DNA of 64,000 bases, taken from Mobula hypostoma. Its lineage: Eukaryota. Every line of letters begins with the position of its first letter. The stretch's first letter is position 1. The notes under the pieces are model-generated. The model saw nothing but the letters and a program-made list of their open reading frames with translations. It searched no databases and was not told the origin of the DNA. Below, one piece after another: positions 1,640 to 62,008 of this stretch. The DNA is taken from the NCBI RefSeq assembly GCF_963921235.1, contig NC_086097.1:79176001-79240000 (forward strand). The letters run 5' to 3'. Made by a program: the position numbers and the translations under genes.

Positions 1640-2655
1640 GGGTTACTTCTGGTGCTTCATGCTTACCTGGACACAAAGAGAAATATACAGCATGTCTGGC
1701 TCAGGAACTGGAGCAGAAGGAAAGGTTTCAGGTTCTTGGATCATTAAAACCATTCTGGAGTGGCAGTGACAAGAGTAATGGGTTGTACCTTAACTAGAGA
1801 GAAACCAGTGTCCTGTCTGGGAAGTTTGCGAATGCTGCTCAGGGGAGTTTAAACTAGTTTGGCATGAGAATGGAACCAAAGCACGAGGTCAGAAAGCAGA
1901 GGGATCAGGAGGAAGATAGATGCCAGGACTAGTAAGAACAGGCATAAGCAATGTCATCAATATCATGAGACAGGCGTGTTGAAGTGTGTATATTTAACGC
2001 TACTGGTACTAAAGGTAAGGGAGATTAACTTAAAGCATGGAATATACCCCAGGACATTGAGTGAAGCAAGGAATGAGATTTCTGGGGCATTAACCTTGAG
2101 GGCTCAAATGTAGAGAGATAGTACACTGTTAATGGGAAGACCCTTAACAGTGTTGATGTGCAAAGGGATTTTAGGGCTCATGTCCTTGGCTGTACAGGTT
2201 GATCGGGTGATAAAGGCAGCATATGTCATGCTTGCTTTTATTAGTTGAGAAAATGTGTTCAAGATTCTTGAAGTTATGTTGCAGATTTATAAAACTCTGG
2301 TTGGGACACTTTTGAAGTATTGTATTCAATTCTGGTCACCCCATTTTCGGAAGGATGTTGAGGCTTTGGCGAAGGTGCAGAAGAGGTTCACCAGGAGGCT
2401 GCTGGGATTGAAGGGCATGTCCATGTTGGACAGACCTGGTTTGATTTCCATGGAGTGGAGGAGTTTCAGAGGAAATCTGACATAAGCATTTAGAGGCATT
2501 TAAGAGACTTGGATAGACATATGAACATGCAGAGAATGAAGGGATATGGACATTGTGGAGCCAGAAGGCTTTTGTTTAGTTGGACATTTAATTACTAATT
2601 TAACCACATTGTGGGCCAATGTTACTGTGCTGTACTGTTTGATGTTCTATGTACA
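1640..2655 (+). mobile_element. Old, internally deleted CR1 LINE (end of ORF1, ORF2 fragments, 3' UTR)
   Basis: ...GKFANAAQGSLN* ORF1 end; KYCIQFWSPHFRKDVEALAKVQKRFTR ORF2 C-terminal motif; ttctatg-like tail. Confidence 0.8.
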
Positions 2656-18800: not shown

Positions 18801-20170
18801 ACTAGATGTCCTAGTTAAGCACTTCAGAAGTATAATCATTGCTGCAGAAAACAAGGGAGCCAAAGCAAAACTCACAACATGCTGGGGGAACTCAGCAGGT
18901 CGGGCAGCATCCGTGGAAACGATGAGTCGATGTTTTGGGCTGGAACCTTCGTCAGGTCCTGACCCTATGTCCTGACCTATGTTCCGGCCCGAAACATCAA
19001 CTGATCTTTTTCCACGCATGCTGCCCAACCTGCTGAGTTCCTCCAGTGTGTTGTGAGTGTTGCTTTGACCCCAGCATCTGCAGAGTATTTTGTGTTTAAC
19101 AAGGGAGCCAAATTGGACCCATCAAGCACATACAATTGCAACATGCTAATGATTTTTTTACAATTGAGTGATATATGTTCACGACTCCACCAGGGCAGCA
19201 CAATTATTTGTCCTCAAGAAGCTATTTTGGTACGTTTCAGGACATCCTGAAAAAAAGTCTTGGGTGTGTTCATTTAACCTCTTAAAAAATGGTCATAGTT
19301 CCACCAACGTAGAACTACCTTGATATTGCACCGGAGCGGAGTTTTGAAGTTTAAATTTTAGTAAATCCCATGTACCTGGCGTGGGGCTTGAACTAACAGG
19401 GCAGTAAACCACAGCTAATAACAACATATCTTCAATAAATGAGAAATAAATGTGGCAATACTCTTACAACACTGATCCACCTCTGTCCTTTCTATTTTTA
19501 CATGTAGTATCAAATAATTTTACCTTGGATTTCTTTTCTATATTCAGTTTCTCCTTTGCCTCCCAAAGACATTGACACAATTTGGAATATAGTTGCATAA
19601 ACACACAACCTCTGGCATCTTAAACATTATCCAGTTATCATTTTGAAAGTGAGCAGTAGAGTATTTCAGTGCAGAAACAGGCCCTTCAGCCCTTCAACTC
19701 TGTACTTACCTTCAACCATTTTTTTTAACCAGACCCACTTATTCAACCCATACTTCCAAGACCTCCCTCTTGATTCAGCTACACTCTAGGGGAAATTTAT
19801 AGTTGCCAATTAACCTGCTGACCTGCATTCTTCAGGCTGTGAGAAGAATGCTCAGTACCCAGAGGAAACCATGTGATCACAGAGAATGTGCATATTCCAC
19901 ACTGACTATTGCAACATACAATGTTTCTGTCTTCTATTCCAGTAATGGCCACGTGCGAACCTGCTAAAGGGGTAACTAGACAGAGCTCTTGGTTATCCAA
20001 TTATTACCTGAACTAAGATCATCAATTCTAACTAAACTGCTGGTGAGATACTGACATTCATGTTCCTGCGTCCATGTGATGATGGGAAGTTAATTTTTAT
20101 CTGAACTCATTTGTAGACTAGAGAAGCTTTCAGAACTTGATGTGGGGAAAATATCTTTAACTTTAACAGG

Positions 20171-21094
20171 ATGTTGGAATGCTCCTCTTGCAGGATGTGG
20201 AAAGTCAGGGAGCCCTCCGGTGTCCCTGACAACGACACCTGCAAGAAGTGCATCCAGCTGCAGCTCCTGACAAACCGCGTTAGGGAGCTGGAGCAGGAGC
20301 TGGATGACCTGCGGATCATTCGGGAGAATGAGGAGATTATAGATCGTAGCTACAGGGAGGTAGTTACGCCAAAGGAGCAGAGGACAGGAAATTGGGTCAC
20401 TGTCAGGCGAGGGAAGGGGAAAGGGCAGGCAGAGCAGGGTTCCCCTGTGGCCATTCACCTCAACAACAAGTATACCGCATTGGATACTGTTGGGGGGGAT
20501 GACTTACCTGGGACTAGCTGCAGTAGCCGGATCTCTGGCACTGGGTCTGGCTCTGCAGTGCAGAAGGGAGGGTGGAAAAAGAGGAGAGCGGTAGTGATAG
20601 GGGACTCGATAGTTAGAGGTGCAGATAGGAGGTTCTGTGGTCGTGACAGAGAATCCAGGATGGTTTGTTGCCTCCCGGGTGCCAGGGTCAAGGATGTCTC
20701 TGATCGATTGCATGACATTCTGAAGTGGGAAGGTGATCAGCCAGATGTCGTGGTGCACATCGGTACCAATGACATAGCAAGGAAGAGTGAAGAGGTCCTG
20801 GACAGTGAGTATAGAGAGCTTGGTAGGAAGTTGAAAAGCAGGACCTCGAGGGTGGTAATCTCAAGATTGCTACCTGTGCTAGGTGCCAGTGAGGGTAGGA
20901 ATAGGATGCTCTGGAGGATGAACAAGTGGCTGAGGAACTGCTGTAGGGAGCAGGGATTCAGATTTCAGGATAATTGGGACCTCTTCTGGGGCAGGTGGGA
21001 CCTGTACAAGAGAGACGGGTTACACTTGAACTACAGGGGGACCAATATCCTTTCAGGGAGGTTTGTTAGTGCTATTGGGGAGGCTTTAAACTAG
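20171..21094 (+). CDS. CR1 ORF1p: zinc finger/coiled coil plus SGNH esterase domain
   Basis: CSSC..CKKC, coiled coil, VIGDSIVR, HIGTND, DGLHLN; 307 aa open. Confidence 0.9.
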   Translation: MLECSSCRMWKVREPSGVPDNDTCKKCIQLQLLTNRVRELEQELDDLRIIRENEEIIDRSYREVVTPKEQRTGNWVTVRRGKGKGQAEQGSPVAIHLNNKYTALDTVGGDDLPGTSCSSRISGTGSGSAVQKGGWKKRRAVVIGDSIVRGADRRFCGRDRESRMVCCLPGARVKDVSDRLHDILKWEGDQPDVVVHIGTNDIARKSEEVLDSEYRELGRKLKSRTSRVVISRLLPVLGASEGRNRMLWRMNKWLRNCCREQGFRFQDNWDLFWGRWDLYKRDGLHLNYRGTNILSGRFVSAIGEALN

Positions 21095-21096
21095 AT

Positions 21097-23904
21097 TTGC
21101 AGGGGGATGGGAACCAGAGTGCCAGAGCTGACAGTGTGGCTGGGGTGAAAATAAATGATGTTAAAAGTTCAAGCAAATCCGCTAATAGAAAGGTTGTGAA
21201 TGGTGGTAAAAATCTTCTGAGGTGTATATACTTCAATGCTAGGAGTATTGCGGGGAAGGCGGATGAGTTGAGGGCGTGGATTGACATGTGGAATTATGAC
21301 GTTATAGCAATTAGTGAAACTTGGCTACAGGAGGGACAGGACCAGCAGATTCCAGGGTTCCGATGTTTCCGATGTGATCGAGGCAGAGGAATGAAAGGTG
21401 GGGGAGTAGCATTGCTTGTTAGGGAAAATATTACAGCAGTGCTCAGGCAGGACAGGTTAGAGGGCTTGTCTACTGAGTCCTTATGGGTGGAGCTGAAAAA
21501 CAGGAAAGGTATGGCCACATTAGTGGGATTGTATTACAGACCACCCAATAGTCAACGAGAATTGGAAGAGCAAATCTGCAGGGAAATAGCAAGCAACTGC
21601 AGGAAACATAAAGTTGTGGTGGTAGGGGATTTTAATTTTCCATATATTGATTGGGACTCCCATACTGTTAGGGGTCTAGATGGTTTAGAGTTTGTAAAAT
21701 GTGTTCAGGAAAGTTTTCTAAATCAATATATAGAGATACCAACTAGCGGGGATGCAATATTGGATCTCCTGTTAGGAAACGAGTTAGGACAAGTGACTGA
21801 AGTCTGTGTAGGGGAGCACTTTGGTTCCAGTGATCATAACACCATTAGTTTCAACTTGATCATGGACAAGGATAGATCTAGTCCTAGGGTTGAGGTTCTT
21901 AACTGGAAGAAGGCCAAATTTGAAGAAATGAGAAAGGATCTAAAAAGCGTGGATTGGGACAGGTTGTTCTCTGGCAAGGATGTGATCGGTAGGTGGGAAG
22001 CCTTCAAAGGAGAAATTTTGAGAGTGCAGAATTTGTATGTTCCTGTCAGGGTTAAAGGCAAAGTGAATAGGAATAAGGAACCTTGGTTCTCAAGGGATAT
22101 TGCAACTCTGATAAAGAAAAAGAGGGAGTTGTATGACATGTATAGGAAGCAGGGAGTAAATAAGGTGCTTGAGGAGTATAAGAAGTGCAAGAAAATACTT
22201 AAGAAAGAAATCAGGAGGGCTAAAAGAAGACATGAGGTTGCCTTGGCAGTCAAAGTGAAGGATAATCCAAAGAGCTTTTACAAGTATATTAAGAGCAAAA
22301 GGATTGTAAGGGATAAAATTGGTCCTCTTGAAGATCAGAGTGGTCGCCTATGTGCGGAACCAAAGGAAATGGGGGAGATCTTAAATAGGTTTTTTGCATC
22401 TGTATTTACTAAGGAAACTGGCATGAAGTCTGTGGAATTAAGGGAAACAAGTAGTGAGATCATGGAAACTGTACAGATCGAAAAGGAGGAAGTCCTTGCT
22501 GTCTTGAGGAAAATTAAAGTGGATAAATCCCTGGGACCTGACAGGGTGTTCCCTCGGACCTTGAAGGAGACTGGTGTTGAAATTGCAGGGACCCTGGCAG
22601 AAATATTTAAAATGTCGCTGTCTACAGGTGAGGTGCCGGAGGATTGGAGAGTGGCTCATGTTGTTCCGTTGTTTAAAAAAGGATCGAAAAGTAATCCGGG
22701 AAATTATAGGCTGGTAAATTTAACGTCGGTAGTAGGTAAGTTATTGGAGGGAGTACTCAGAGACAGAATCTACAAGCATTTGGATAGACAGGGACTTATT
22801 AGGGAGAGTCAACATGGCTTTGTGCGTGGCAGGTCATGTTTGACCAATCTATTGGAGTTTTTTGAGGAGGTTACCAGGAAAGTGGATGAAGGGAAGGCAG
22901 TGGATATTGTCTACATGGACTTCAGTAAGGCCTTTGACAAGGTCCCGCATGGGAGGTTAGTTAGGAAAATTCAGTCGCTAGGTATACATGGAGAGGTGGT
23001 AAATTGGATCAGACATTGGCTCAATGGAAGAAGTCGAAGAGTGGTAGTAGAGAATTGCTACTCCGAGTGGAGGCCTGTGACTAGTGGTGTGCCACAGGGA
23101 TCAGTGCTGGGTCCATTGTTATTTGTCATCTATATCAATGATCTGGATGATAAGGTGGTAAATTGGATCAGCAAGTTTGCTGATGATACAAAGATTGGAG
23201 GTGTAGTAGACAGCGAGGAAGGTTTTCAGAACCTGCAGAGGGACTTGGACCAGCTGGAAAAATGGGCTGAAAAATGGCAGATGGAGTTTAATGCAGACAA
23301 GTGTGAGGTTTTGCACGTTGGAAGGACAAACCAAGGTAGAACATACAGGGTAAGGCATGGTAAGGCACTGAAGAGTGCAGTGGAACAGAGGGATCTGGGA
23401 ATACAGATACAAAATTCCCTAAAAGTGGCATCACAGGTAGATAGGGTCGTAAAGAGAGCTTTTGGTACATGGGCCTTTATTAATCAAAGTATTGAGTATA
23501 AGAGCTGGAATGTTATGATGAGGTTGTATAAGGCATTGGTGAGGCCGAATCTGGAGTATTGTGTTCAGTTTTGGTCACCAAATTACAGGAAGGATATAAA
23601 TAAGGTTGAAAGAGTGCAGAGAAGGTTTACAAGGTTGTTGCCGGGACTTGAGAAACTCAGTTACAGAGAAAGGTTGAATAGGTTAGGACTTTATTCCCTG
23701 GAGCGTAGAAGAATGAGGGGAGATTTGATAGAAGTATATAAAATTATGATGGGTATAGATAGAGTGAATGCAAGCAGGCTTTTTCCACTGAGGCAAGGGG
23801 AGCAAAAAACCAGAGGACATGGGTTTAGGGTGAAGGGGGAAAAGTTTAAAGGGAACATTAGGAGGGGGCTTCTTCACACAGAGAGCGGTGGGAGTATGGA
23901 ATGA
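21097..23904 (+). CDS. CR1 ORF2p: APE endonuclease plus reverse transcriptase (no AUG start; late frameshift ~23865)
   Basis: NARS, SETW, YYRPP, GDFN, SDHN; DFSKAFD, GVPQGSVLGP, KFADD; 935 codons open. Confidence 0.93.
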   Translation: MQGDGNQSARADSVAGVKINDVKSSSKSANRKVVNGGKNLLRCIYFNARSIAGKADELRAWIDMWNYDVIAISETWLQEGQDQQIPGFRCFRCDRGRGMKGGGVALLVRENITAVLRQDRLEGLSTESLWVELKNRKGMATLVGLYYRPPNSQRELEEQICREIASNCRKHKVVVVGDFNFPYIDWDSHTVRGLDGLEFVKCVQESFLNQYIEIPTSGDAILDLLLGNELGQVTEVCVGEHFGSSDHNTISFNLIMDKDRSSPRVEVLNWKKAKFEEMRKDLKSVDWDRLFSGKDVIGRWEAFKGEILRVQNLYVPVRVKGKVNRNKEPWFSRDIATLIKKKRELYDMYRKQGVNKVLEEYKKCKKILKKEIRRAKRRHEVALAVKVKDNPKSFYKYIKSKRIVRDKIGPLEDQSGRLCAEPKEMGEILNRFFASVFTKETGMKSVELRETSSEIMETVQIEKEEVLAVLRKIKVDKSLGPDRVFPRTLKETGVEIAGTLAEIFKMSLSTGEVPEDWRVAHVVPLFKKGSKSNPGNYRLVNLTSVVGKLLEGVLRDRIYKHLDRQGLIRESQHGFVRGRSCLTNLLEFFEEVTRKVDEGKAVDIVYMDFSKAFDKVPHGRLVRKIQSLGIHGEVVNWIRHWLNGRSRRVVVENCYSEWRPVTSGVPQGSVLGPLLFVIYINDLDDKVVNWISKFADDTKIGGVVDSEEGFQNLQRDLDQLEKWAEKWQMEFNADKCEVLHVGRTNQGRTYRVRHGKALKSAVEQRDLGIQIQNSLKVASQVDRVVKRAFGTWAFINQSIEYKSWNVMMRLYKALVRPNLEYCVQFWSPNYRKDINKVERVQRRFTRLLPGLEKLSYRERLNRLGLYSLERRRMRGDLIEVYKIMMGIDRVNASRLFPLRQGEQKTRGHGFRVKGEKFKGNIRRGLLHTESGGSME

Positions 23905-24267: not shown

Positions 24268-24789
24268 GGGGGAAAACGATGAGCAGTCAGAGTTAGAAGG
24301 TGAGCGGACTTAGCTCACCTGCGTGAAGGATGAAACAATTCCTTTTGATTTTTGCCAATATATGCTCACAGTCACATAAAGGGAAATGAGAAAACATAGA
24401 GAGGCACATGTCAGTTGCATCAAATTGTCTGTTCATGTGTCTTTGGGTTCTGTACGATTCTTCTTGGTAATACAGTGGGTCATCAGTTAATCAGGCAGCT
24501 GCTTATTTGGGACAACCCTTAAAGAATAAAAAAACTACAGAAACAGGCCTTTCAGCCCATATTGTCCATGCGAAAGCCATTTAAACTGCCTAGTCCCAAT
24601 GACCAGGGCCATCGTCCTCCATATCCCTAATATCCATAATTCTCTTAAACATTGAAATTGAGCTCGCATGGATCACTTGAGTTGGCTGCTCATTCCACAC
24701 TCTCATGACCCTCTGAGTGAAGGAGTTTCCTCTCATGATCCCCTTAAACTTTTCACCTTTCACCCTTAAACCACGACCTCTGGTTATAG

Positions 24790-27700
24790 AAACACAGAAA
24801 CATAGAAAATAGGTGCAGGAGTAGGCCATTCGGCCCTTCGAGCCTGCACCGCCATTTATTATGATCATGGCTGATCATCCAACTCAGAACCCCGCCCCAG
24901 CCTTCCCTCCATACCCCCTGACCCCCGTAGCCACAAGGGCCATATCTAACTCCCTCTTAAATATAGCCAGTGAACTGGCCTCAACTGTTTCCTGTGGCAG
25001 AGAATTCCACAGATTCACCACTCTCTGTGTGAAGAAGTTTTTCCTAATCTCGATCCTAAAAGGCTTCCCCTCTATCCTCAAACTGTGGCCCCTTGTTCTG
25101 GACTTCCCCAACATCGGGAACAATCTTCCTGCATCTAGCCTGTCCAATCCCTTTAGGATCTTATACGTTTCAATCAGATCCCCCCTCAATCTTCTAAATT
25201 CCAATGAGTACAAGCCCAGTTCATCCAGTCTTTCTTCATATGAAAGTCCTGCCATCCCAGGAATCAATCTGGTGAACCTTCTTTGTACTCCCTCTATGGC
25301 AAGGATGTCTTTCTTCAGATTAGGGGACCAAAACTGCACACAATACTCCAGGTGTGGTCTCACCAAGGCCTTGTACAACTGCAGTAGTACCTCCCTGCTC
25401 CTGTACTCGAATCCTCTCGCTATAAATGCCAGCATACCATTTGCCTTTTTCACCACCTGCTGTACCTGCATGCCCACTTTCAATGACTGGTGTATAATGA
25501 CACCATTATACCATAATGGCACCTCCCCTTTTCCTAATCGGCCACCATTCAGATAATAATGTTTTCCTATTTTTGCCACCAAAGTGGATAACTTCACATT
25601 TATCCACATTAAATTGCATCTGTCATGAATTGGCCCACTCACCCAACCTATCCAAGTCACCCTGCATCCTCTTAGCATCCTCCTCACAGCTAACACTGCC
25701 ACCCAGCTTCGTGTCATCCGCAAACTTGGAGATGCTGCATTTAATTCCTTCATCCAAGTCATTAATATATATTGTAAACAACTGGGGTCCCAGCTCTGAG
25801 CCTTGCGGTACCCCACTAGTCACCGCCTGCCATTCTGAAAAGGTCCCGTTTATTCCCACTCTTTGCTTCCTGTCTGCTAACCAATTCTCCACCCACACCA
25901 ATACCTTACCCCCAATACCGTGTGCTTTAAGTTTGCACACTAATCTCCTGTGTGGGACCTTGTCAAAAGCCTTTTGAAAATCCAAATATACCACATCCAC
26001 TTGTTCTCCCCTATCCACTCTACTAGTTACATCCTCAAAAAATTCTATGAGATTCGTCAGACATGACTTTCCTTTCACAAATCCATGCTGACTTTGTCCG
26101 ATCATTTCACCGCTTTCCAAATGTGCTGTTATCACATCCTTGATAACTGACTCCAGCAGTTTCCCCACCACCGACGTTAGGCTAACCGGTCTATAATTCC
26201 CCGGTTTCTCTCTCCCTCCTTTTTTAAAAAGTGGAGTTACATTAGCCACCCTCCAATCCTCAGGAACTAGTCCAGAATCTAATGAGTTTTGAAAAATTAT
26301 CACTAATGCATCCACTATTTCTTGGGCTACTTCCTTAAGCACTCTAGGATGCAGACCATCTGGCCCTGGGGATTTATCTGCCTTCAATCCCTTCAATTTA
26401 CCTAACACCACTTCCCTACTAACATGTATTTCGCTCAGTTCCTCCATCTCACTGGACCCTCTGTCCCCTACTATTTCTGGAAGATTATTTATGTCCTCCT
26501 TAGTGAAGACAGAACCAAAGTAATTATTCAATTGGTTTGCCATGTCCTTGCTCCCCATAATCAATTCACCTGTTTCTGTCTGCAGGGGACCTACATTTGT
26601 CTTTACCAGTCTTTTCCTTTTTACATATCTATAAAAGCTTTTACAGTCCGGTTTTATGTTCCCTGCCAGTTTTCTCTCATAATCTTTTTTCCCCTTCCTA
26701 ATTAAGCCCTTTGTCCTCCTCTGCTGAACTCTGAATTTCTCCCAGTCCTCAGGTGAGCCGCTTTCTCTGGCTAATTTGTATGCTTCTTCTTTGGAATTGA
26801 TACTATCCCTAATTTCTCTTGTCAGCCACGGGTGCACTACCTTCCTTGATTTATTCTTTTGCCAAACTGGGATGAACAATTGTTGTAGTTCATCCATGCA
26901 ACCTTTAAATGCTTGCCATTGCATATCCACCGTCAATCCTTTAAGTGTCATTTGCCAGTCTATCTTACCTAATTCATGTCTCATACCTTCAAAGTTACCC
27001 CTCTTTAAGTTCAGAACCTTTGTTTCTGAATTAACTATGTCACTCTCCATCTTAATGAAGAATTCCACCATATTATGGTCACTCTTACCCAAGGGGCCTC
27101 TCACGACAAGATCGCTAATTAACCCTTCCTCATTGCTCAAAACCCAGTCCAGCATAGCCTGCTCTCTAGTTGGTTCCTCGACATGTTGGTTCAAAAAACC
27201 ATCCCGCATACATTCCAAGAAATCCTCTTCCTCAGCACCTTTACCAATTTGGTTCACCCAATCTACATGTAGATTGAAGTCACCCATTATAACTGCTGTT
27301 CCTTTATTGCACACATTTCTAATTTCCTGTTTAATACCATCTCCGACCTCACTACTACTGTTAGGTGGCCTGTACACAACTCCCACCAGCGTCTTCTGCC
27401 CCTTAGTGTTACGCAGCTCTACCCATATCAATTCCACATCTTCCCGGCTTATGTCCTTCCTTTCTATTGCATTAATCTCTTCTTTAACCAGCAACGCCGC
27501 CCCACCTCCCCTTCCTTCATGTCTATCCCTCCTGAATATTGAATATCCCTGAACGTTGAGCTCCCATCCCTGGTCAACCTGGAGCTATGTCTCTGTGATC
27601 CCAACTATATCATAATCATTAATAACAATCTGCACTTTCAATTCATCCACCTTATTACGAATGCTCCTTGCATTGACACATAAAGCCTTCAGGCGCTCTT

Positions 27701-28332
27701 TTACAACTCTCTTAGCCCTTATACAAATATGTTGAAAAGTGGCCCTTTTTAATGCTTGCCCTGGATTTGTTGGCCTGCCACTTTTACTTTTCTCCTTTGT
27801 ACTTTTTGCTTCTACCCTCACTTTACACCCCTCTGTCTCTCTGCACTGGTTCCCACCCCTCTGTTGTGAACTAACCTCCTCACGCCTAGCCTCTTTAATT
27901 TGATTCCCACCCCCCAACCATTCTAGTTTAAAGTCACCTCAGTAGCCCCCGCTAATCTCCCTGCCAGGATATTGGTCCCCCTAGGATTCAAGTGTAACCC
28001 GTCCTTTTTGTACAGGTCACGCCTGCGCCAAAAGAGGTCCCAATGATCCAAAAACTTGAATCCCTGTCCCCTGCTCCAATCCCTCAGCCACGCATTTATC
28101 CTCCACCTCATCGCATTCCTACTCTCACTGTCGCGTGGCACAGGCAGCAATCCTGAGATTACTACCTTTGCGGTCCTTTTTCTCAACTCCCTTCCTAGCT
28201 CCCTATATACTCCTTTCAGGACCTCATCCCTTTTCCTACCTATGTCATTGGTACCTATATGTACCACGACCTCTGGCTCCTCACCCTCCCACTTCAGGAT
28301 ATCTTGGACACGATCAGAAATATCCCGGACCC
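24790..28332 (-). mobile_element. Young 5'-truncated CR1 LINE (second family) nested in an older CR1 3' fragment (24537-24789 and 28333-28425)
   Basis: Esterase ORF1 end (HIGTND, DGLHLN); ORF2 with stops at 27585 and 25623 and a frameshift ~25560; (ATAGAAAC)-like tail on + strand; ATAG at both junctions. Confidence 0.93.
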
Positions 28333-28489
28333 AATAGTCCCACCCAAGCCTGTTTGTAAGTACCCTATCTATACCCCTCATAATTTTGAATAGCTCTATC
28401 AAAGCTCCTCTCATTCTACCTTCCAGGATCTGTTCATTATCACTCGGCTGAGTTGGGGTCTTGCTATGCAAGTGTGACAAGCCACATTT

Positions 28490-31099
28490 TTTTTACATTA
28501 CAATATTAACTCGATTCCGAACAGATTCTTTAATTCCCGGATGACAGAGGCACTATTGCATCATGGAGTCCTTCGGCCTACTCAAAGTGTAACCCTCCAT
28601 TGTTGCCTATCGGAAAACGTGGGAGGCCGGATGAATGGCGTTTTGTGCAGGATTTACGAGGCGTAACCCACCTCTGCGGTTGCGCCAGAAGTCAATGTGA
28701 TACAGTATTAGTCTGCGTTCCCTCGGACAGTTGCTGGTACTTTGTAACTGATTGCGTTCCGCGTTCTTCTCCATACCCCTGCATGAGGATAGTCAATACC
28801 TGTTCGCTTTCACAGACAGCGGACAGCAATATACGTGAACACGGCTACCTGAAGGGTGCACAGAAAGTCCTGCCATATTGTACGCATCTGCTACCCATAT
28901 AGTTATCCAACTACTATCCGTCTGGCAAGCCTGATATTTAACGGATGCAGCATAATACTGCATTATGCGAGTGATCTATTGCTGGCTTCTCAGGCCCTGA
29001 CTGACTGCAGGTACTGTTTAACTAATTTGGCTACTAGAGGACACAGAGCATCCTTATCGAGACTGCAGTATGCCAGTCTACTGTGGTATATCTATTGTCA
29101 TACCAAGGAACTCGCCGTTTGAGACCAGAACGCATTTCAGCCATTATACAACCCCTGGACCCGCCACTAAAAAGCAAATGGTGGCCTTCCTGGGGATGGC
29201 AAACTATTGTAGACATTAGGTTCGAGAATATCGACTTCATGGTGCTGTTCTCAGAACGGCGATGTTGCAAGAGGCAGGTTCCTGATAATGTCCCGTGGAA
29301 TGAAGACATGCAACGAGCCTTAAAGGATGCACTGATACAGGCACCGGCCTTGGATCTGCCAGATTATAAGAAACCCTTGTACGCGAGTGAAAAGGAGGGG
29401 CTGGTTTGTGCAGTATTGACCCAGGAGCGTGGGGGATTAAGGAGATCCCCAGTGGTAAGGGGAATGCCAGGGTGCCCGCGGCAGTGATGCTGGAAAAAGA
29501 CGAACCGCTACTGCGAGACCATGTCTGCGCTATCTTAGCGCCCCGTGCAGTGATGCTACCCCTGAATTCGGCGGCGAGCCACCACTTTACAAACGCCAGA
29601 CGTACAGGGTATGAGGTAATGCTCCTTAGTAAGGTTAATTTAACCTTCAAAAGAGCCCCGGCACCAAACCCTGCCACGTTAGTGCCTTTGACAGAGGACG
29701 GCGAATCATGTGGCTGCATCAAGGTTGTGGAATTAGTTCGCTCGCCCTGTCCAGATTTACCCTCTGTACCGTTGGCTAATCCGGACCTAGTACTATTCAC
29801 AGGCGGGTACTCATGCAAACCCAGTGATAATACAACACTGGCCGGATATGCGGTGGTGATAAGCCCGTTTGAAACTCTAGAAGCAGGGACTCTCCCTCAA
29901 GGAACCTCCGCACGGGCGGCTGGACTTTTCGCCTTAACAAGAGCGTGTATTTTGGCAGAAGGATATACTGTAAGTGTATACACGGACTCTAGATATGATC
30001 TCGGGGTAGTACACAATTTGGTGTCCCTCTAGTAGCATAGAGGATTTATTACGTCAACTGGAAAACCCATACAGCACGCATACCTTATTAGGAGGCGGTG
30101 GAATTACCAAAACAAATAGTTGTCATTCAGTGCGAAGCTCACACAAACACGTCATAGCCCAATGCAGCGGCCGATGCGGTGGCCGATGGTCTGCAACAGA
30201 TGAAAAGGCTATGCGGCTACAGCGGACGCCACAGCCACTCCGGTCCACCACTCTCCAGGATCTGGAGTAGCGAGTTGTCAACTCTGTAAGCAAAACATTA
30301 GAGGGAAGTTCCCCGCAAAATTCGATCACCTACCGCCGACAAAGGCCCCCTTTGCCAATCTACAAGTAGATTCTGTGCGCTCGCATATAGATACTTATTA
30401 GTAATAGTGGGCCTGTTTTCTAAATGGGTAAAAGCCTTCCCCAAGCGGAAGGATGATACTCAGGTAGCAGTAAAAACTTTAATGAAGAGAATTATCCTCA
30501 GGCTCGGGGTACCATAAGCTTAATAGAGTCAGAGGAACGCATTTTACAGGGAAATTGATTAAGGAATTGAGCCAGGTGTTCGGATTCATCTGGGAATAGC
30601 ACTTTCCATATCAGCCTTGGTCTTCAAGGTTAATGGAGAGAATGAATGGAGTCCTGAAAGATACCCCAGCTAGGTCTGTCAGGAGAGAGGACTGAGATGG
30701 CTGGGGGCATTTCCCTTGGTGCTATATAGGAATCAGGTAAATAGGACAATCCAGCTAACCCTGTTTGATATATTGATGGCGAGGCCAATGCCAATGGCGT
30801 CTCGGCCCCCCTTAACAAGTGCTCAAACAGCACTGGCCTGGACCAACGAGAACATGATTGAATTTGTCAAAACATTGGGAGATGCAACACAATTAAGTCA
30901 GAGGTGCATAGCAGATGTGTTACCTTAGCCGGGAAAAGAAAACACCAATCCCATTAAATGTGGAGATTACGTGTATGTAAAAAAGCTTTTAAAAGATTCT
31001 CTTTTGCCTAGGTGGAAGGGTCCTTACCAGGTAATTTTGGTAACCAGAACCGTCGTAAAGCTAGAAGGACAAGAAGGACTGGATGCACGGGATCAAGTT
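28490..31099 (+). pseudogene. pol: Endogenous retrovirus pol (RT-RNase H-integrase), class I (epsilon/gamma-like), decayed
   Basis: WRFVQDLR; AFFSIPLHEDSQYLFAFT; TRLPEGCTESP; HYASDLLLA (degenerate YxDD); QAPALDLPDYKKP; GTSARAAGLFALTRAC, YTDSRY; PFANLQVD, FSKWVKAFP, GTHFTG, ERMNGVLK; PRWKGPYQVIL. Confidence 0.9.
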
Positions 31100-31100
31100 C

Positions 31101-32432
31101 CTCCACCGCGTTGTGTGGCACTATCACCGCGTTGTGTGGCACTATCACCGCGTTGTGTGGCACTATCACCGCGTTGTGTGGAACTACCACTGCCGTTGTG
31201 TGGCACTACCACCGCGTTGTGTGGAACTACCACTGCCGTTGTGTGGCACTACCACCGCGTTGTGTGGAACTACCACCGCATTGTGTGGCACTATCACTGC
31301 CGTTGTGTGGCACTACCACCGCGTTGTGTGGCACTACCACCGCGTTGTGTGGAACTACCACCGCATTGTGTGGCACTATCACTGCCGTTGTGTGGAACTA
31401 CCACCGCATTGTGTGGAACTACCACCGCATTGTGTGGCACTACCACCGCATTGTGTGGCACTACCACCGCGTTGTGTGGAACTACCACCGCATTGTGTGG
31501 AACTACCACCGCATTGTGTGGCACTATCACTGCCGTTGTGTGGAACTACCACCGCATTGTGTGGAACTACCACCGCATTGTGTGGCACTATCACTGCCGT
31601 TGTGTGGAACTACCACCGCGTTGTGTGGCACTACCACCGCATTGTGTGGCACTACCACCGCATTGTGTGGAACTACCACCGCATTGTGTGGCACTACCAC
31701 CGCATTGTGTGGAACTACCACCGCATTGTGTGGAACTACCACCGCATTGTGTGGCACTACCACCGCATTGTGTGGCACTACCACCGCGTTGTGTGGAACT
31801 ATCACTGCCGTTGTGTGGAACTATCACCGCGTTGTGTGGCACTACCACCGCCGTTGTGTGGCACTACCACCGCGTTGTGTGGAACTACCACCGCATTGTG
31901 TGGCACTATCACCGCATTGTGTGGAACTACCACCGCATTGTGTGGAACTACCACCGCGTTGTGTGGAACTACCACCGCATTGTGTGGAACTACCACCGCA
32001 TTGTGTGGAACTACCACCGCATTGTGTGGAACTACCACCGCATTGTGTGGCACTACCACCGCGTTGTGTGGAACTATCACTGCCGTTGTGTGGAACTATC
32101 ACCGCGTTGTGTGGCACTACCACCGCCGTTGTGTGGAACTACCACCGCGTTGTGTGGCACTACCACCGCGTTGTGTGGAACTATCATTGCCGTTGTGTGG
32201 AACTATCACCGCATTGTGTGGAACTACCACTGCCATTGTGTGGAACTACCACCGCATTGTGTGGAACTACCACTGCCATTGTGTGGCACTACCACTGCCA
32301 TTGTGTGGCACTACCACTGCTGTTGTGTGGCACTACCACTGCCGTTGTGTGGCACTATCACCGCGTTGTGTGGCATTACCACTGCTGTTGTGTGGCACTA
32401 CCACGGCCGTTGTGTGGCACTACTACCGACCA
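31101..32432 (+). repeat. Minisatellite, ~60 copies of a 21/22-bp unit (CACCGCRTTGTGTGGMACTAY / CACTGCCGTTGTGTGGMACTAY)
   Basis: Directly visible tandem array; no stop codons in any + frame. Confidence 0.97.
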
Positions 32433-34710
32433 CCGTGCTAGATGGGATAGACTTCGAACAGAGCTAGCAGCCCAAGACTGGGATTTATGAGGCACTGTGG
32501 GCCATCAGCAGCAGCAGAATTATACTCAACTACAATCTATAACCTCATGGCCTGGCACAACACAGGACTACTTGCATGCCGAACACCATAAGCAGCAAGA
32601 AATAGGCAGAGGTAAGTGGTCCTACAAACAACGGATCAGATCTAAGCTCTGTAGTCCTGTCACATCCAACCATGAATGGTGGTGGACAATCAAACACCTC
32701 ACTGGAGGAGGAGGCTCCACAAATATCCCCATCCTCAATGATAGAGGAGCCCAGCACACCTGTGCAAAAGAGAAGGCTGAGGAATTTTCGACAACCTTCA
32801 TTCAGAAGTGCTGAGTAGATGATCCAGCTTGGCCTCCTCCAGAAGTCCCCAGCATCCCAGATGTCAGTATGCAGTCAATCTTATTCACTCCATGTGATAT
32901 CGAGAAATGGCTGAAAGCACTGAATACTGCAAAGGCTATGGACCCAGACAAAATCCTAGCAATAGTCCTGAAGACTTGTGCTCCAGAACTTGCCCCGCCA
33001 CTAGTCAAGCTGTTCCAGTACAGCTACAACACCAGCATCGATCCGGTAATGTGGAAAATTGCCCAGGTATGTCCTGTACGCAAGAAACAGGACAAGTCCA
33101 ACCCAACTAATTACTGCCCTATCAGCCTACTCTCAATCATCAGCACAGTAATGGAAGGGTCATCAACAGTACTATCATGCAGCACCTACTCGGCAATAAA
33201 CTGCTTACGGATGTCCAGTTTGGGTTCCGTCAAGGCCACTCAGCTCCTGACCGCATCACCTCCTTGGTCCAAACATGGACCTAAGAGCTAAATACCTGAG
33301 GTGAGGTGAGAGTGATAGCTCTCAACGTCAAGACAGCATTTGACTGAGAATGGGATCAAGGTGCCCTAGCTAAAATGGAGTCAATGGGAATTAAGAGGAA
33401 AACCCTCCACTGGTTGGAATCATACCTGACACAAAGGAAGATGGTTGTGGTGGTTGGAGGTCAATCATCTCATCCTCAGGACATCACTATAGAAGTTGCT
33501 CAGGGAAGTGTCCTAGGACCAATCATCTTCAGCTGCTTCATCAATGACCTTCCTTCCGCCATAAGGTCAGAACTGGGGATATTCGCAGATGACTGCACAA
33601 TGTTCTGCACCATTCGTGATTCCTCAGATAGTGAAGCAGTTTGTACTTAAATGCAGCAGGACCTGGACAATATCCAGGCTTGGGCTGACGAGTGGCAAGT
33701 AACATTCGAACCATGCAAGTGCCCGGTGATGACCATCTCCAACAAGAGAGGCTGTAACCATCGTCCCTTGACATTCAGTGGAATCACCATCATTGAATCC
33801 CCTACTATCAATATCCTGAGGGTTACCATTGACAGAAAAGTGAACTGGTCTAGCCATATAAACACCATGGCTACAAGAGCAGGTCAAAGACCAGGAATCC
33901 TGCAGTGTGTAACTCACCTCCCGACTCTCGAAAGCCTGTCCACCATCTACAAGGCTCAGGTCAGGACTCGGGTGTGTAATGGAATGAGTGCAGCTCCATC
34001 AACACTCAATAGACAATAGGTACAGGAGTAGGCCATTCAGCCCTTCGAGCCACCACCGCCATTCACTGTGATCATGGCTGATCATTCAGTATCAGTATCC
34101 AGTTCCTGCCTTATCCCCATAACCTTTGATTCCACTATCATTAAGAGCTCTACCCATCTCTTTTTTGAAAGCATCCAGAGACTTGGCCTCCACAGCCTTC
34201 TGGGGCAGAGCATTCCATATATCCACCACTCTCTGGGTGAAAAAGTTCTTCCTCACGAAGCTTGACACCATCCAGTACAAGGCAGCCCACTTGATTCGTA
34301 CCTCATTCACAAGCATCCAATCCCTGGATCATCGATGAACAGTTGCAGCAGTGTGTACTATCTACAAGGTCCACCAAAGTTCCTAAGGCAGCACCTTTCA
34401 GACCCACGGCCACTACCATCTAGAAGGATGAGAACACCAGATACCTGGGAACACCACCACTTGGAAATCCCCCTCCAAGCTGCTCACTATCCTGACTTTG
34501 AAACATATCGCCATTCCTTCACTATCGCCATGTCAAAATCATGGAATTCCCTCCCTAAGAGCATTGTGGGTGAATCTACACCTCAGGGACTGCAGCAGTT
34601 CAAGAAGGCAGCTCGTCACCATCTTCTCAAGGGCAACTAGGGATGAGCAATAATTACTGGCTTAACTGGCGATGCCCATGTCCCGTAAATAAATAAATAA
34701 ATAAATAAAC
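32433..34710 (+). mobile_element. Decayed non-LTR retrotransposon (CR1/L2 group) inserted between ERV pol and env
   Basis: VLKTCAPELAPPLVKLFQYS, NPTNYCPISLLS, VAQGSVLGP, FADD; (TAAA)n tail; contains a CR1 3' fragment (-) at ~34009-34255. Confidence 0.88.
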
Positions 34711-55419: not shown

Positions 55420-56999
55420 CAGTTCCAAGAAAAAGTCTGTGAACCCTTTGCAATTACCTAGTTTTCTACATTACTCATAAAATGTGATCTGATCTTCATT
55501 TAAGTCACAATAATAGACAAAGACAATCTGCCTAAGCTACTAACTTCTTTTCAATACTGAGTACACCATTTAAACAATCACTGTCTAGGTTCAAAAAAAA
55601 GTATGTGAACCTCTGGGGTAATGCCTTCTGCAAAAGCTATTTGGAGTCAGGTGTCCCAATCAATGAGATGAGATTGGATGTGTGGGTTGTAGAGGTGCCT
55701 GGATCTATTAAAAAAAAATCAAGCCAGGTTACTGACAAATCTGTTTATGTGCATCACACCTTGATCAAAACAACTTTCCCAGGATCCTAGAAGAATTGTA
55801 GAGATGCACAAAGCTGGGAAAGGCTACAAAAGCATTTCTAAAGCCCTGCGTGTTCATCAGTGCACAGTAAGAGAAACTGTCCACAAATGGAGGAAATTCA
55901 GCACTGTTGCTACTCTCCCTAGGAGTGGACGTTCTGCAAAGATCACACCGAGCATTATGTGCAATGCTGAAGGTGAAAAAGAACCCAACAGTAACAGACC
56001 TGCAGACATCTCTAGAACTTGCTAAAATCTCTGTCTGTTCATGTGTTCACTATAAAAAAAACGCTGAAAAAGTATGGTGTTTATGGAAGGACACTATAGA
56101 GGAAACCACAGTTCTCCAAAAAATAAACATTGCTGCACGTCTCAAGTTTGCAAAAGACTACCTGGATGTTCCACCATGCTTTTGGGACAATGTTCTGTGA
56201 ACAGGTGAGACAACATTTGAATGTTTTGTTAGAAATGCACATCGTTACGTTTGGAGGAAAAAGGGCACTGCACACCAATACCTTATCACGACTGAGAAGC
56301 ATGGTGGAAGGAACATCATGGTTTAGGACTACTTTGCGGTCTCAGGGCCTGGACAGCTTGTAATCGTTGAGTGAACAATGAATTCAAAATTGTATCATTG
56401 CAAAATTGCTATTTTACAGGAGAATATCAGGGTAGTGGTGTACCACCTGAAGCTTAATAGAAGCTGCTTGCTGCAACAAGACTTGTCTTGTTACATACAC
56501 CTGTTAGGGTGCATTCTCCAGTTACCTTATAAGGTAACCGTAGCCTTCAGCCAGGAACAGATGTCATCAGGTGGTTCCCAACCTTCACCGAGTGTTTCCA
56601 CCCTTAACCACGACACTCTCCAGTTGGTGGGCCAGCAGTGGTGTCGAAATGGCTAAGTCAGAGACCAATGTCCCGACGAAGGGTTTCGGCCTGAAACGTC
56701 GACTGCGCCTCTTCCTATAGATGCTGCTTGGCCTGCTGCGTTCACCAGCAACTTTGATGTATGTTGCTTGGATTTCCAGCATCTGCAGAATTCCTGTTGT
56801 TTACATATTTTTTCCAGCTGAATTGTGAATGATTAAACAATATGCTCAATAAAGACATGAAGAGTGCAATTGTTTGTATGTTGTTAGTTTAGGCAGATTG
56901 TGTTTGTCTATGATTGTGACTTAGATGAAGATCAGACCACATTTTATGCATAATTAATGCAGAAAACTAGGCAACTGCAAAGGGTTCTTCTTGAAACTA
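55420..56999 (+). mobile_element. Tc1-family IR/DR transposon, decayed, with internal insertions
   Basis: TA|CAGTTCCAAGAAAAAGTCTGTGAACC; HKAGKGYKSISKAL..TVRETVHKWRKF..LPRSGR paired-like HTH. Confidence 0.88.
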
Positions 57000-60474: not shown

Positions 60475-62008
60475 CAGTTGCAAGAAAAAGTTTGTGAACC
60501 CTTTGCAGTTACCTGGTTTTCTGCATTAAGTACTCATAAAACGTGGTCTGATCTTCATCAGAGTCACAATATTAGACAAACACAATCTGCCTACGCTAAT
60601 AACACATAATTGTACTTCCTCTTGTCAATACCGAGTACACCATTTAAACAATCGCAGTCAAGGTTCCAAAAAAAAAGTATGTGAACCTCTGGGGCAATGC
60701 CTTCTATAAATGCTATTTGGAGTCAGGTGTCCCAATCAATGAGATGAGATTGGAGGTGTGGCTTGTAGAGGTGCCCTGCCCTACATAAAAACATATCAAG
60801 TCAGGTTACTGACAGATCAGTTTATGTGCACCATACCTCTATCAAAACAACTTTCACAGGACTTCAGAATAAGAATTGTAGAGATGCATGAAACTGGAAA
60901 AGGCTACAAGATCACTTCTAAAGACCTGAGCGTTCATCAGTCCACAGTAAGCAAAATTGTTCACAAATGGAAGAAACTCAGTACTGTTGCAACTCTCCCT
61001 ACAAGTGGGCACCCAGCAAAGATCACACCAAAAGCACAACATGCAGTGCTGAAGGAAGTGTCAAAGAACCTGAGGGTAACTAACAGCTGCTAAAGTTTCT
61101 TCATGTGTCCAGAATATAAAAAAAATACTGAACAAGAATGGTGTTCGTGGAAGGACACCATGGAGCTGCTCTCCAAAAAAAAACAATTGCTGCACATCTC
61201 AGGTTTGCAAAAGATCACCTGGATGTTCCATAATGCTTCTGGGACAATGTTCTGTGAACAGATGAAACAAACGATGAACTTTTTGGCAGAAATGCACACT
61301 GCTATGTTTGAAGGAAAAAGGACACGGCGCACCAACACCAAAATGTCATCCCAACAGTGAAGCATGGTGGAAGGAGCACCATGGTTTGGGGATGCTTTGC
61401 TGCCTCAGGGCTTGGACAGCTTGCAATCGTCGAGGGAACAATGAATTCAAAATTGCATCAAAACATTTTACAGGAGAATGTCAGGGTAGCAGTCTGTGAC
61501 CTGAATCTAAATAGAAGCTGGATGATACAAGACAATGACCTGCAACACTAGAGTAATTCAACAACAGAATGGTTTAAAAAGAAGAAAATTCGGGTTTTGG
61601 AATAGCCAAGTCTGAATACAGACCTTAACCGAATTGAGACGCCGTGGCATGACCTGAAGAGGGCTGTTCATGCAAGGAATCCCAGAAATATTGATGAACT
61701 GAAACAGTTTTGTATGGAGGTATGGTCTAAAATTCCGCCATGCCGTTGTGCGAGTCTGATCAGCAGCTACAGGAAATGTTTGGTGGAAGTTATACCAGAT
61801 ATTAAATACAAGGGTTCACATACTCTTTCCAGCCTGCACTGTGAATAATTAAACAATGTGCTTAATAAAGACATGAAGAGTACAATCGTTTGTGTGTCAT
61901 TAGTTTAGGCAGATTATGTTTGTCTATTATTGCGACTTAAAAGATCAAACCACATTTTATGTATAATTAATGCAGAAAACCAGGGTTTACAAAATTTTCT
62001 TGCAACTG
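60475..62008 (+). mobile_element. Tc1-family IR/DR transposon, near full length, frameshifted transposase
   Basis: ~200-bp imperfect TIRs CAGTTGCAAGAAAA / TTTTCTTGCAACTG with inner repeat AAAAGTATGTGAACC; GKGYKITSK, KHGGRSTMVWGCFAASG, QDND, DLNRIE. Confidence 0.92.

Follow-up and report, generated by a model that had tools for sequence, protein, structure and literature searches.

The window analysed here, a stretch of 64,000 nucleotides of the Mobula hypostoma genome, holds two CR1-type LINEs that extend as far as ORF1: copy 1 on the plus strand and copy 2 on the minus strand. Both ORF1s encode an SGNH/GDSL esterase (Pfam PF13472, E 1.8e-13 and 2.8e-15), both ORF2s encode an APE endonuclease followed by a reverse transcriptase (RT; PF03372/PF14529 and PF00078), and both 3' ends carry short TTTCTATG-like tandem repeats, with no poly(A) and no LTR. 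An esterase ORF1, an APE-then-RT ORF2 and a short-repeat 3' end are the features expected of an esterase-ORF1 LINE of the CR1 clade. We take the label CR1 from this domain layout and from the turtle and bird homologs; the one tree built is that of the ORF1 esterase. The best matches among named ORF1 homologs came from Hemitrygon, Mobula, Leucoraja and Hypanus, and further ones from Callorhinchus, Xenopus, Chrysemys and Grus. Because the two copies are only 66% identical in ORF1 and 47% in ORF2, they represent distinct CR1 families. The features are as follows.

20141..21094, plus strand: copy 1 ORF1, with a Cys-rich N-terminus, a coiled-coil-like stretch and the SGNH esterase; ends T TTA AAC TAG
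21085..21106, plus strand: copy 1 junction, with the heptamer at 21085-21091, TAG at 21092-21094 and G5 at 21102-21106
21070..23904, plus strand: copy 1 ORF2 frame, -1 relative to ORF1, open for 944 codons
27923..28333, minus strand: C-terminal half of copy 2 ORF1, SGNH/GDSL esterase (PF13472, E 2.8e-15)
27926..27932, minus strand: copy 2 slippery heptamer U_UUA_AAC, containing the last two ORF1 codons (Leu-Asn), in the phase X XXY YYZ
27923..27925, minus strand: copy 2 ORF1 stop TAG, read from the sequence, abutting the heptamer
27906..27915, minus strand: copy 2 G tract GGGGGG T GGG; its G5 core lies at heptamer positions 18-22, after a 10-nt spacer (candidate linear stimulator)
27895..27921, minus strand: out-of-frame eight-codon AUG ORF in the third frame, 1 nt past the stop (ATG 27921-27919, TAA 27897-27895)
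27675..27905, minus strand: variable ORF2 linker of copy 2, from the junction to the endonuclease, with a subfamily AUG variant at 27821 (codon 38)
24790..27674, minus strand: copy 2 ORF2, APE endonuclease, RT and 3' tail; dead copy
1848..1857, plus strand: third CR1 junction, decayed, with the same heptamer and TAG and an eroded G run

Copy 2 spans about 28333-24790 on the minus strand and is 5'-truncated near 28333. The part of ORF1 that it retains shares 97% identity with the Mobula protein P0010, and its ORF2 is damaged by stops at 27587-27585 and 25625-25623 and by a frame break near 25566. Since pieces of the 3' region of another CR1 lie on either side of it (28346-28417 and 24537-24785, both minus strand), copy 2 was probably inserted into an older CR1. 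The third, decayed CR1, at 1700-2480 on the plus strand, has a large internal deletion in ORF2. The motif TTTAAACTAG matches the window three times against 0.25 expected, a number reached in none of 100 shuffles, and all three matches are CR1 ORF1 ends. Elsewhere in the window, a broken retrovirus-like pol with RNase H and an MLV-type integrase C-terminal domain (Pfam) occupies 28530-31100 (plus strand). Right behind the integrase-like remnant, at 31000-32450, follows a long head-to-tail array of about 21-nt units in which all three plus-strand frames are open. The segment 59960-60310 (minus strand) is presumably a host exon, its translation resembling the N-terminal S1 domain of eIF2-alpha, and 55871-56200 and 60743-61404 read like fragments of a Tc1/mariner transposase, which we take them to be.

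On the minus strand, ORF1 of copy 2 ends GAG GTG ACT TTA AAC TAG, and the -1 frame reads FKLEWLGGGNQ and onward. The slippery TTTAAAC followed by TAG that the original prediction had placed at this ORF1 end is indeed found, at 27932-27926 and in ORF1 phase, with the TAG at 27925-27923. Counted from the TTT of the heptamer, the NARS motif lies at codon 87, GITET at codon 111 and the first Met at codon 216. The frame thus lacks Met through both endonuclease motifs, as had been claimed; the count reads through a TAG at codon 116, which the first reading left unmentioned and which is specific to copy 2, its relatives having TGG. Upstream of the heptamer the -1 frame is closed after two codons in copy 2 and five in copy 1. 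For copy 2 this closure rules out an AUG within ORF1 as the start of ORF2 and leaves only about 14 nt in which a shift would be possible. In the ORF2 frame of copy 1, NARS is codon 51 and the first Met, codon 68, lies behind it; across the 317 codons of its ORF1, no slippery heptamer other than the terminal one is in phase. The linker of copy 2 was said to differ from that of copy 1 in sequence and length, and it is in fact 36 codons longer (NARS at codon 87 versus 51), with little in common beyond FKL..G.GNQ.

Relatives were collected by a scan with the ORF1 alignment, which returned 52 metagenome loci, most of them single decayed copies, and one genome locus; with the two window copies this made 55 sequences. 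A C-terminal profile from which the last residues had been left out matched 35 of these (20 remained unmatched), and 10 of the 35 end before the junction, leaving 25 ORF1 ends. The heptamer was located as the best match at most 70 nt from the profile end. Viral contigs and plasmids yielded no relatives, and the one genome locus is short and lacks the junction.

The heptamer occurs in 22 of the 25 esterase-ORF1 ends, in 19 as exact TTTAAAC and in three as a one-base variant (GTTAAAC, TTTAAAT, TATAAAC); the remaining three (L022, L035 and L043), which are L2-like, were counted as misses. The 22 junctions fall into five lineages of the esterase tree (ray, bird-like, turtle-like and two deeper ones) with pairwise ORF1 identities of 21-37%. 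Leu is encoded by TTA in 21 of the 22, versus 16% of Leu codons in these loci, and Asn by AAC in 21 of the 22, versus a background of 41%. The base before TTA is T in 21 of 22 junctions, and the codon it ends encodes any of seven amino acids (Ala, Thr, Cys, Ser, His, Tyr and Phe). With one row per lineage, the chance of finding TTA and AAC together is 0.065^5, about 1e-6, if silent sites are saturated. The stop that follows is TAG in 17 junctions, TGA in two (L028 and L029, which keep the heptamer) and decayed in three. Among 15 loci with an endonuclease match, 12 have it in the -1 frame and the other three show visible frame damage. The junction thus has an in-phase X_XXY_YYZ heptamer, a -1 ORF open from that heptamer and conservation at synonymous positions, all of which are expected of a canonical -1 programmed ribosomal frameshift (PRF) site. 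Judged by these codon choices, it is conserved at the nucleotide level and not merely as protein.

The protein sequences extend this picture. An LN end was present in 64 of 66 homologs with a normal tail after the DGxH motif, and all 30 aligned ORF1s, which come from sharks, rays, chimaera, frogs, turtles and birds, have L and N at the C-terminus, at a column identity of 36%. The distance from DGxH to the end varies (26, 32 or 39 residues) while LN stays. Residues that have no NNT codon precede LN in 4 of 80 cases, compared to 15% at nearby positions (P 0.005, with related rows). In five proteins that are frame-shifted or chimeric, the junction reads FKL (P0031, P0096, P0111, P0119 and P0145). 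A more distant set comprised 150 representatives at 50% identity. The C-terminal block is reached by 122 of them, and the 103 that terminate close to it have the endings LN (60), GN (10), KN (2), another residue plus Asn (5) or something else (26). One distant clade (P0169, P0175, P0176, P0179, P0226, P0178, P0257, P0190 and P0240) ends in QGN, SGN, SKN, FLN or EN. In the esterase tree the SGN row is sister to SKN and the QGN row sister to an FLN row, so that these endings are interleaved within one clade. The pattern suggests switches between the slippery heptamers U_UUA_AAC, G_GGA_AAC and A_AAA_AAC, the GN and KN forms being seen as protein alone. According to PMC5009743, these three are among the four most shift-prone heptamers with mammalian ribosomes. 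An amino acid swap inside the slippery pattern is expected of a frameshift site, not of a protein constraint.

A search for longer natural ORF1-ORF2 fusion proteins gave six matches, none of which is a clean single-ORF element. One (P0119) is a chimeric gene model that crosses the junction and reads FKL, and in P0123 and P0124, probably nested copies, the esterase lies at the C-terminus behind the endonuclease and RT. CR1 ORF1 sequence also occurs in RefSeq/UniRef host gene models (P0030, P0063, P0119, P0120 and P0094), among them isoforms of ribosomal protein S24 and hydroxyacid oxidase 2; these are probably annotation chimeras.

Downstream of the heptamer, the conserved element is a G run. 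GGGGG occupies positions 18-22, 10 nt after the heptamer, in 16 of 20 junctions; at background positions the rate is 12 in 6127. Of 21 junctions, 20 have G at position 18, which is the wobble base of codons for six different amino acids, and the Gly codon is GGG in 16 of 17 cases against a background of 34%. The original prediction held that a G tract is kept. Copy 2 does have one, but conservation is confined to a linear G5 at fixed spacing and does not extend to a tract capable of forming a G-quadruplex. A two-tier quadruplex was predicted in only 4 of 20 loci, copy 2 included, and a universal quadruplex was ruled out on that basis. Folding of the 90 nt after the heptamer gave z-scores between -1.8 and +1.4 in 20 loci, in a model that covers no pseudoknots, and the fold of a 16-junction alignment has no consensus pairs, results that led us to reject a conserved downstream hairpin. 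Long-range pairing of the G run was likewise rejected: no partner is conserved in position, and the best ones lie at unrelated places. There were no Rfam matches at the junction.

The stem-loop or pseudoknot 5-9 nt downstream that is typical of canonical -1 PRF is thus not seen as a conserved first stem. A slippery site without a stimulator shifts weakly. The junction does have what is expected of protein-stimulated PRF, a conserved motif whose start falls 11-15 nt 3' of the shift site. According to the sections of PMC5009743 consulted, a minority of stimulators start 12-15 nt past the shift site and are linked to trans-acting factors, the CCCANCUCC motif of PRRSV begins 11 nt past it, and in pea enation mosaic virus shifting is strongly promoted by a stop just past the site. 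In CR1 a stop just after the heptamer is combined with a motif that starts 11 nt behind it, and the G run may well be a frameshift stimulator.

We consider it likely that esterase-type CR1 LINEs carry at this junction a signal for programmed -1 ribosomal frameshifting, which would yield an ORF1-ORF2 fusion. Most ribosomes would read ORF1 to Leu-Asn and stop at the UAG, releasing ORF1p. In a minority, tRNA-Leu on UUA and tRNA-Asn on AAC would re-pair one base back, on UUU and AAA. For these shifted ribosomes CUA would be the next codon, followed by the linker, the endonuclease and the RT, and the product would be an ORF1p-ORF2p fusion of roughly 1250 residues, comparable to retroviral Gag-Pol. 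Stimulation likely comes from the adjacent stop and from the G5 run, which is unstructured and starts 11 nt behind the heptamer; both would probably act by slowing the ribosome. We infer the shift itself, its rate, the role of the G run and the fusion as the working enzyme from sequence features. The view of the junction as slippery is nevertheless well supported, and it reaches far past the two families in the window for which it was first proposed. Against it count the missing stem, an in-frame Met before the endonuclease in 8 of 15 junctions, a subfamily of copy 2 with an AUG at codon 38, the three of 25 ends without the signal and the 26 of 103 distant ORF1s without a terminal Asn.

The main rival is termination-reinitiation, as in SART1 (UAAUG) or in the AUG-independent mode of L1. 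After stopping, ribosomes would begin again at an AUG or near-cognate codon close by in the -1 frame and make free ORF2p, with the heptamer and the G run serving to hold the ribosome. We regard this as unlikely in general, and the start codons of ORF2 bear on it most directly. No in-frame Met precedes the first endonuclease motif in 7 of 15 evaluable junctions from three lineages, namely both window copies, L004, L005, L006, L028 and L029 (the motif of L028 was read by eye). In the other eight one does, at codon 5 in four bird-like junctions and at codons 22, 23, 29 and 90 in the others. The bird-like loci L002, L008, L010 and L015 have both an intact heptamer and an in-frame ATG at codon 5, 3 nt past the ORF1 stop; this is an ideal distance for reinitiation, and such CR1s may have two routes to ORF2. 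Across 21 junctions, codon 5 of the -1 frame is ATG in four, GTG in three and TTG in one, which also suits a restart; in the remaining 13 it is non-initiating (TCG, TGG, GAC, GCA, GCG, GAA or TCC). A Met within the overlap was found in 3 of 22 junctions, all decayed. SART1-type reinitiation would lead one to expect that an in-frame AUG is kept no more than about 20-30 nt from the stop; one occurs in 4 of 21 junctions, the bird-like ones, and is absent from copies 1 and 2. The AUG that lies 1 nt past the stop of copy 2, at 27921-27919 as originally reported, is out of frame, and an AUG at the same place and frame exists in only 1 of 22 junctions. It is not conserved, and a role for it was dropped.

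Variation within the family of copy 2 was assessed with Logan contigs from four DNA runs (X1, X5, X10 and X14; four organisms) aligned to 27520-28200, the contig depths of which are not copy numbers. A contig from another organism (X10, record 9) spans the whole stretch and differs at 12 of 681 nt, none of them in the junction and none creating an in-frame AUG. Among the variants listed for the four runs, none falls between 27883 and 27948, heptamer included. No change turning codon 6 into an AUG reaches the 10% level in X1, X5 or X14, since all three A>T places listed for these runs lie elsewhere. The scenario that had been named as fatal to the original prediction, a consensus in-frame AUG near the stop that only copy 2 has lost, thus finds no counterpart in the spanning contig or at codon 6. 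A variant at 27821, on the other hand, creates an in-frame AUG at codon 38 and makes up 18% of the depth in X1, 96% in X5, 17% in X14 and none in X10. From these contig variants, the family is AUG-free near the stop, yet only in part Met-free before the endonuclease. The Met-free ORF2 N-terminus thus holds for copy 2 itself and is not a family constant, nor is it shared by the eight of 15 relatives that have a Met.

The codon-38 variant and the precedents of SART1 and L1 (in the portions seen of PMC3708506, PMC5009743 and PMC10275272) speak for reinitiation. Yet the Met positions are scattered (5, 22, 23, 29, 38, 90 or none), and an X XXY YYZ heptamer in exact phase is left unexplained. Viral start-stop gaps are about 20-30 nt in the text seen of PMC10275272, whereas codon 38 of copy 2 lies about 100 nt away. 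With codon 5 non-initiating in most junctions and Met absent in 7 of 15, reinitiation cannot be the general rule, although it may contribute in bird-like elements.

The other explanations fare worse than reinitiation. The motif could be a cis-acting RNA or DNA element with another job, such as ORF1p loading, packaging or transcription pausing, with ORF2 translated from an internal AUG. A linear, unstructured G run would suit a protein-binding site. However, the motif is tied to the ORF1 stop and the -1 offset in all five lineages, and the first AUG of copy 2 comes only after the endonuclease motifs NARS and ITET. These motifs carry active-site residues in APE domains, and we hold such an element to be very improbable. 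Still slimmer is the chance of splicing at the junction, in which the AG of the stop would serve as an internal acceptor, an exon with an AUG further upstream would be joined to ORF2, and the G run would act as a splicing element. G runs do bind hnRNP F/H and the stop is TAG in 17 of 22 junctions, but L028 and L029 have TGA while keeping the heptamer, the pyrimidine fraction in the 25 nt before the AG is just 0.36-0.48, and TAAAC is too near the AG for a branch point. Just as implausible is retention of Leu-Asn for ORF1 protein function with an inherited DNA match, for which the invariance of L and N in 30 of 30 proteins could be cited: synonymous positions are fixed at 21-37% protein identity, so that codon use largely refutes it, Leu is replaced by Gly or Lys in the distant clade, the LN end stays while its distance from DGxH varies, and the G5 sits behind the stop, outside ORF1.

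Frameshifting at the heptamer may not be the only way to a fusion. In the L2-like loci without a heptamer (L035:1755-2100, L043:740- and L022:1954-) the ORF1 stop is TGA, with CTG as the next codon, and L035 stays open in that frame for about 90 codons, into the endonuclease. An out-of-frame ATG lies just before the stop in these ends. The TGA-CTG context and the in-frame endonuclease of L035 suggest that the junction of the L2-like elements (two families) works by readthrough instead of frameshifting. Readthrough has been proposed for a Paramecium group (PMC5405496).

How ORF2 is produced from a bicistronic LINE mRNA is a long-standing question, to which L1 and SART1 alone offer a partial answer. 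Among bird repeats CR1 is dominant, accounting for 11.8% of the chicken genome (PMC11835228), and it is abundant in this ray genome. With a conserved 22-nt signal, the question becomes testable by a simple reporter. If ORF2 is indeed reached by frameshifting, the CR1 enzyme would be a Gag-Pol-like fusion carrying esterase and multimerisation domains, against the view of ORF1 as a separate product. ORF2 annotations that begin at the first Met would be truncated, searches for intact CR1s that demand an ORF2 start codon would miss such copies, and the recoding catalogue would gain a structure-free, G-run-associated frameshift signal.

The original descriptions of CR1 (Haas 1997, Kajikawa 1997, Kapitonov and Jurka 2003) may already note the overlap or a possible shift; together with Repbase notes and supplements they lay outside the coverage of the literature search, which found no report of CR1 frameshifting. 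Expression of CR1 ORF2 by frameshifting, the likely reading of the junction, has no precedent in the literature covered. In PMC3708506, to the extent seen, the mechanism of ORF2 translation is called not clear and ORF1 is argued to be necessarily a separate product, with SART1 using UAAUG. The sections seen of PMC5009743 state that L1 is thought to use AUG-independent initiation and contain no mention of CR1 that we found. A term search for the junction returned nothing from the searchable parts of PMC11835228, PMC1925062, 10.1101/788562, PMC5633606, PMC8665684 and PMC4255032.

The closest known elements are the esterase-ORF1 CR1s of chicken, turtle and cartilaginous fish and the ZfL2-1 esterase element (PMC3905857), with the same SGNH ORF1, APE and RT in ORF2 and short-repeat tail. 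Published accounts of this group give it two ORFs and, as far as they were seen, are silent on a frameshift signal or a fusion; PMC3905857 likewise describes the esterase ORF1p and leaves frameshifting unmentioned in the portion read. Dictyostelium TRE5-A and TRE3-A are also APE-type non-LTR elements, and their ORF2 is said to need a -1 frameshift (PMC5911963), but they belong to another clade, have a different ORF1 without an esterase and have no animal host. SART1 and L1 likewise express ORF2 from a bicistronic LINE mRNA after translation of ORF1, but they make free ORF2p by reinitiation, without a slippery heptamer.

Among viruses, the deltaretrovirus pro-pol junction uses U_UUA_AAC for -1 PRF. 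The coronavirus 1a/1b junction has the same U_UUA_AAC heptamer in the same phase as CR1, and the G_UUA_AAC of equine arteritis virus is the form also found at the CR1 locus L001 (both from the parts seen of PMC5009743). These viral sites have a stem-loop or pseudoknot 5-9 nt downstream, whereas none is conserved in CR1. Nearer in geometry are PRRSV, where nsp1beta and PCBP act on CCCANCUCC, and the cardioviruses: in both the linear motif starts 11 nt 3' of the site (PMC5009743, same sections), and the G5 of CR1 begins at exactly this distance from the heptamer. The likeness goes no further than geometry: the CR1 motif is G-rich and not C-rich, has a stop inside the spacer and has no known binder. 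By this analogy we raise, tentatively, the possibility that CR1 uses protein-stimulated -1 frameshifting, with a host G-run-binding protein or ORF1p on the G5 as roadblock instead of an RNA structure, while the L2-like relatives would reach the fusion by readthrough of UGA-C. Such a protein would be a trans-regulated switch for the ratio of ORF1p to ORF1-ORF2 fusion, kept across five lineages, in a mode of frameshifting hitherto described for RNA viruses only.
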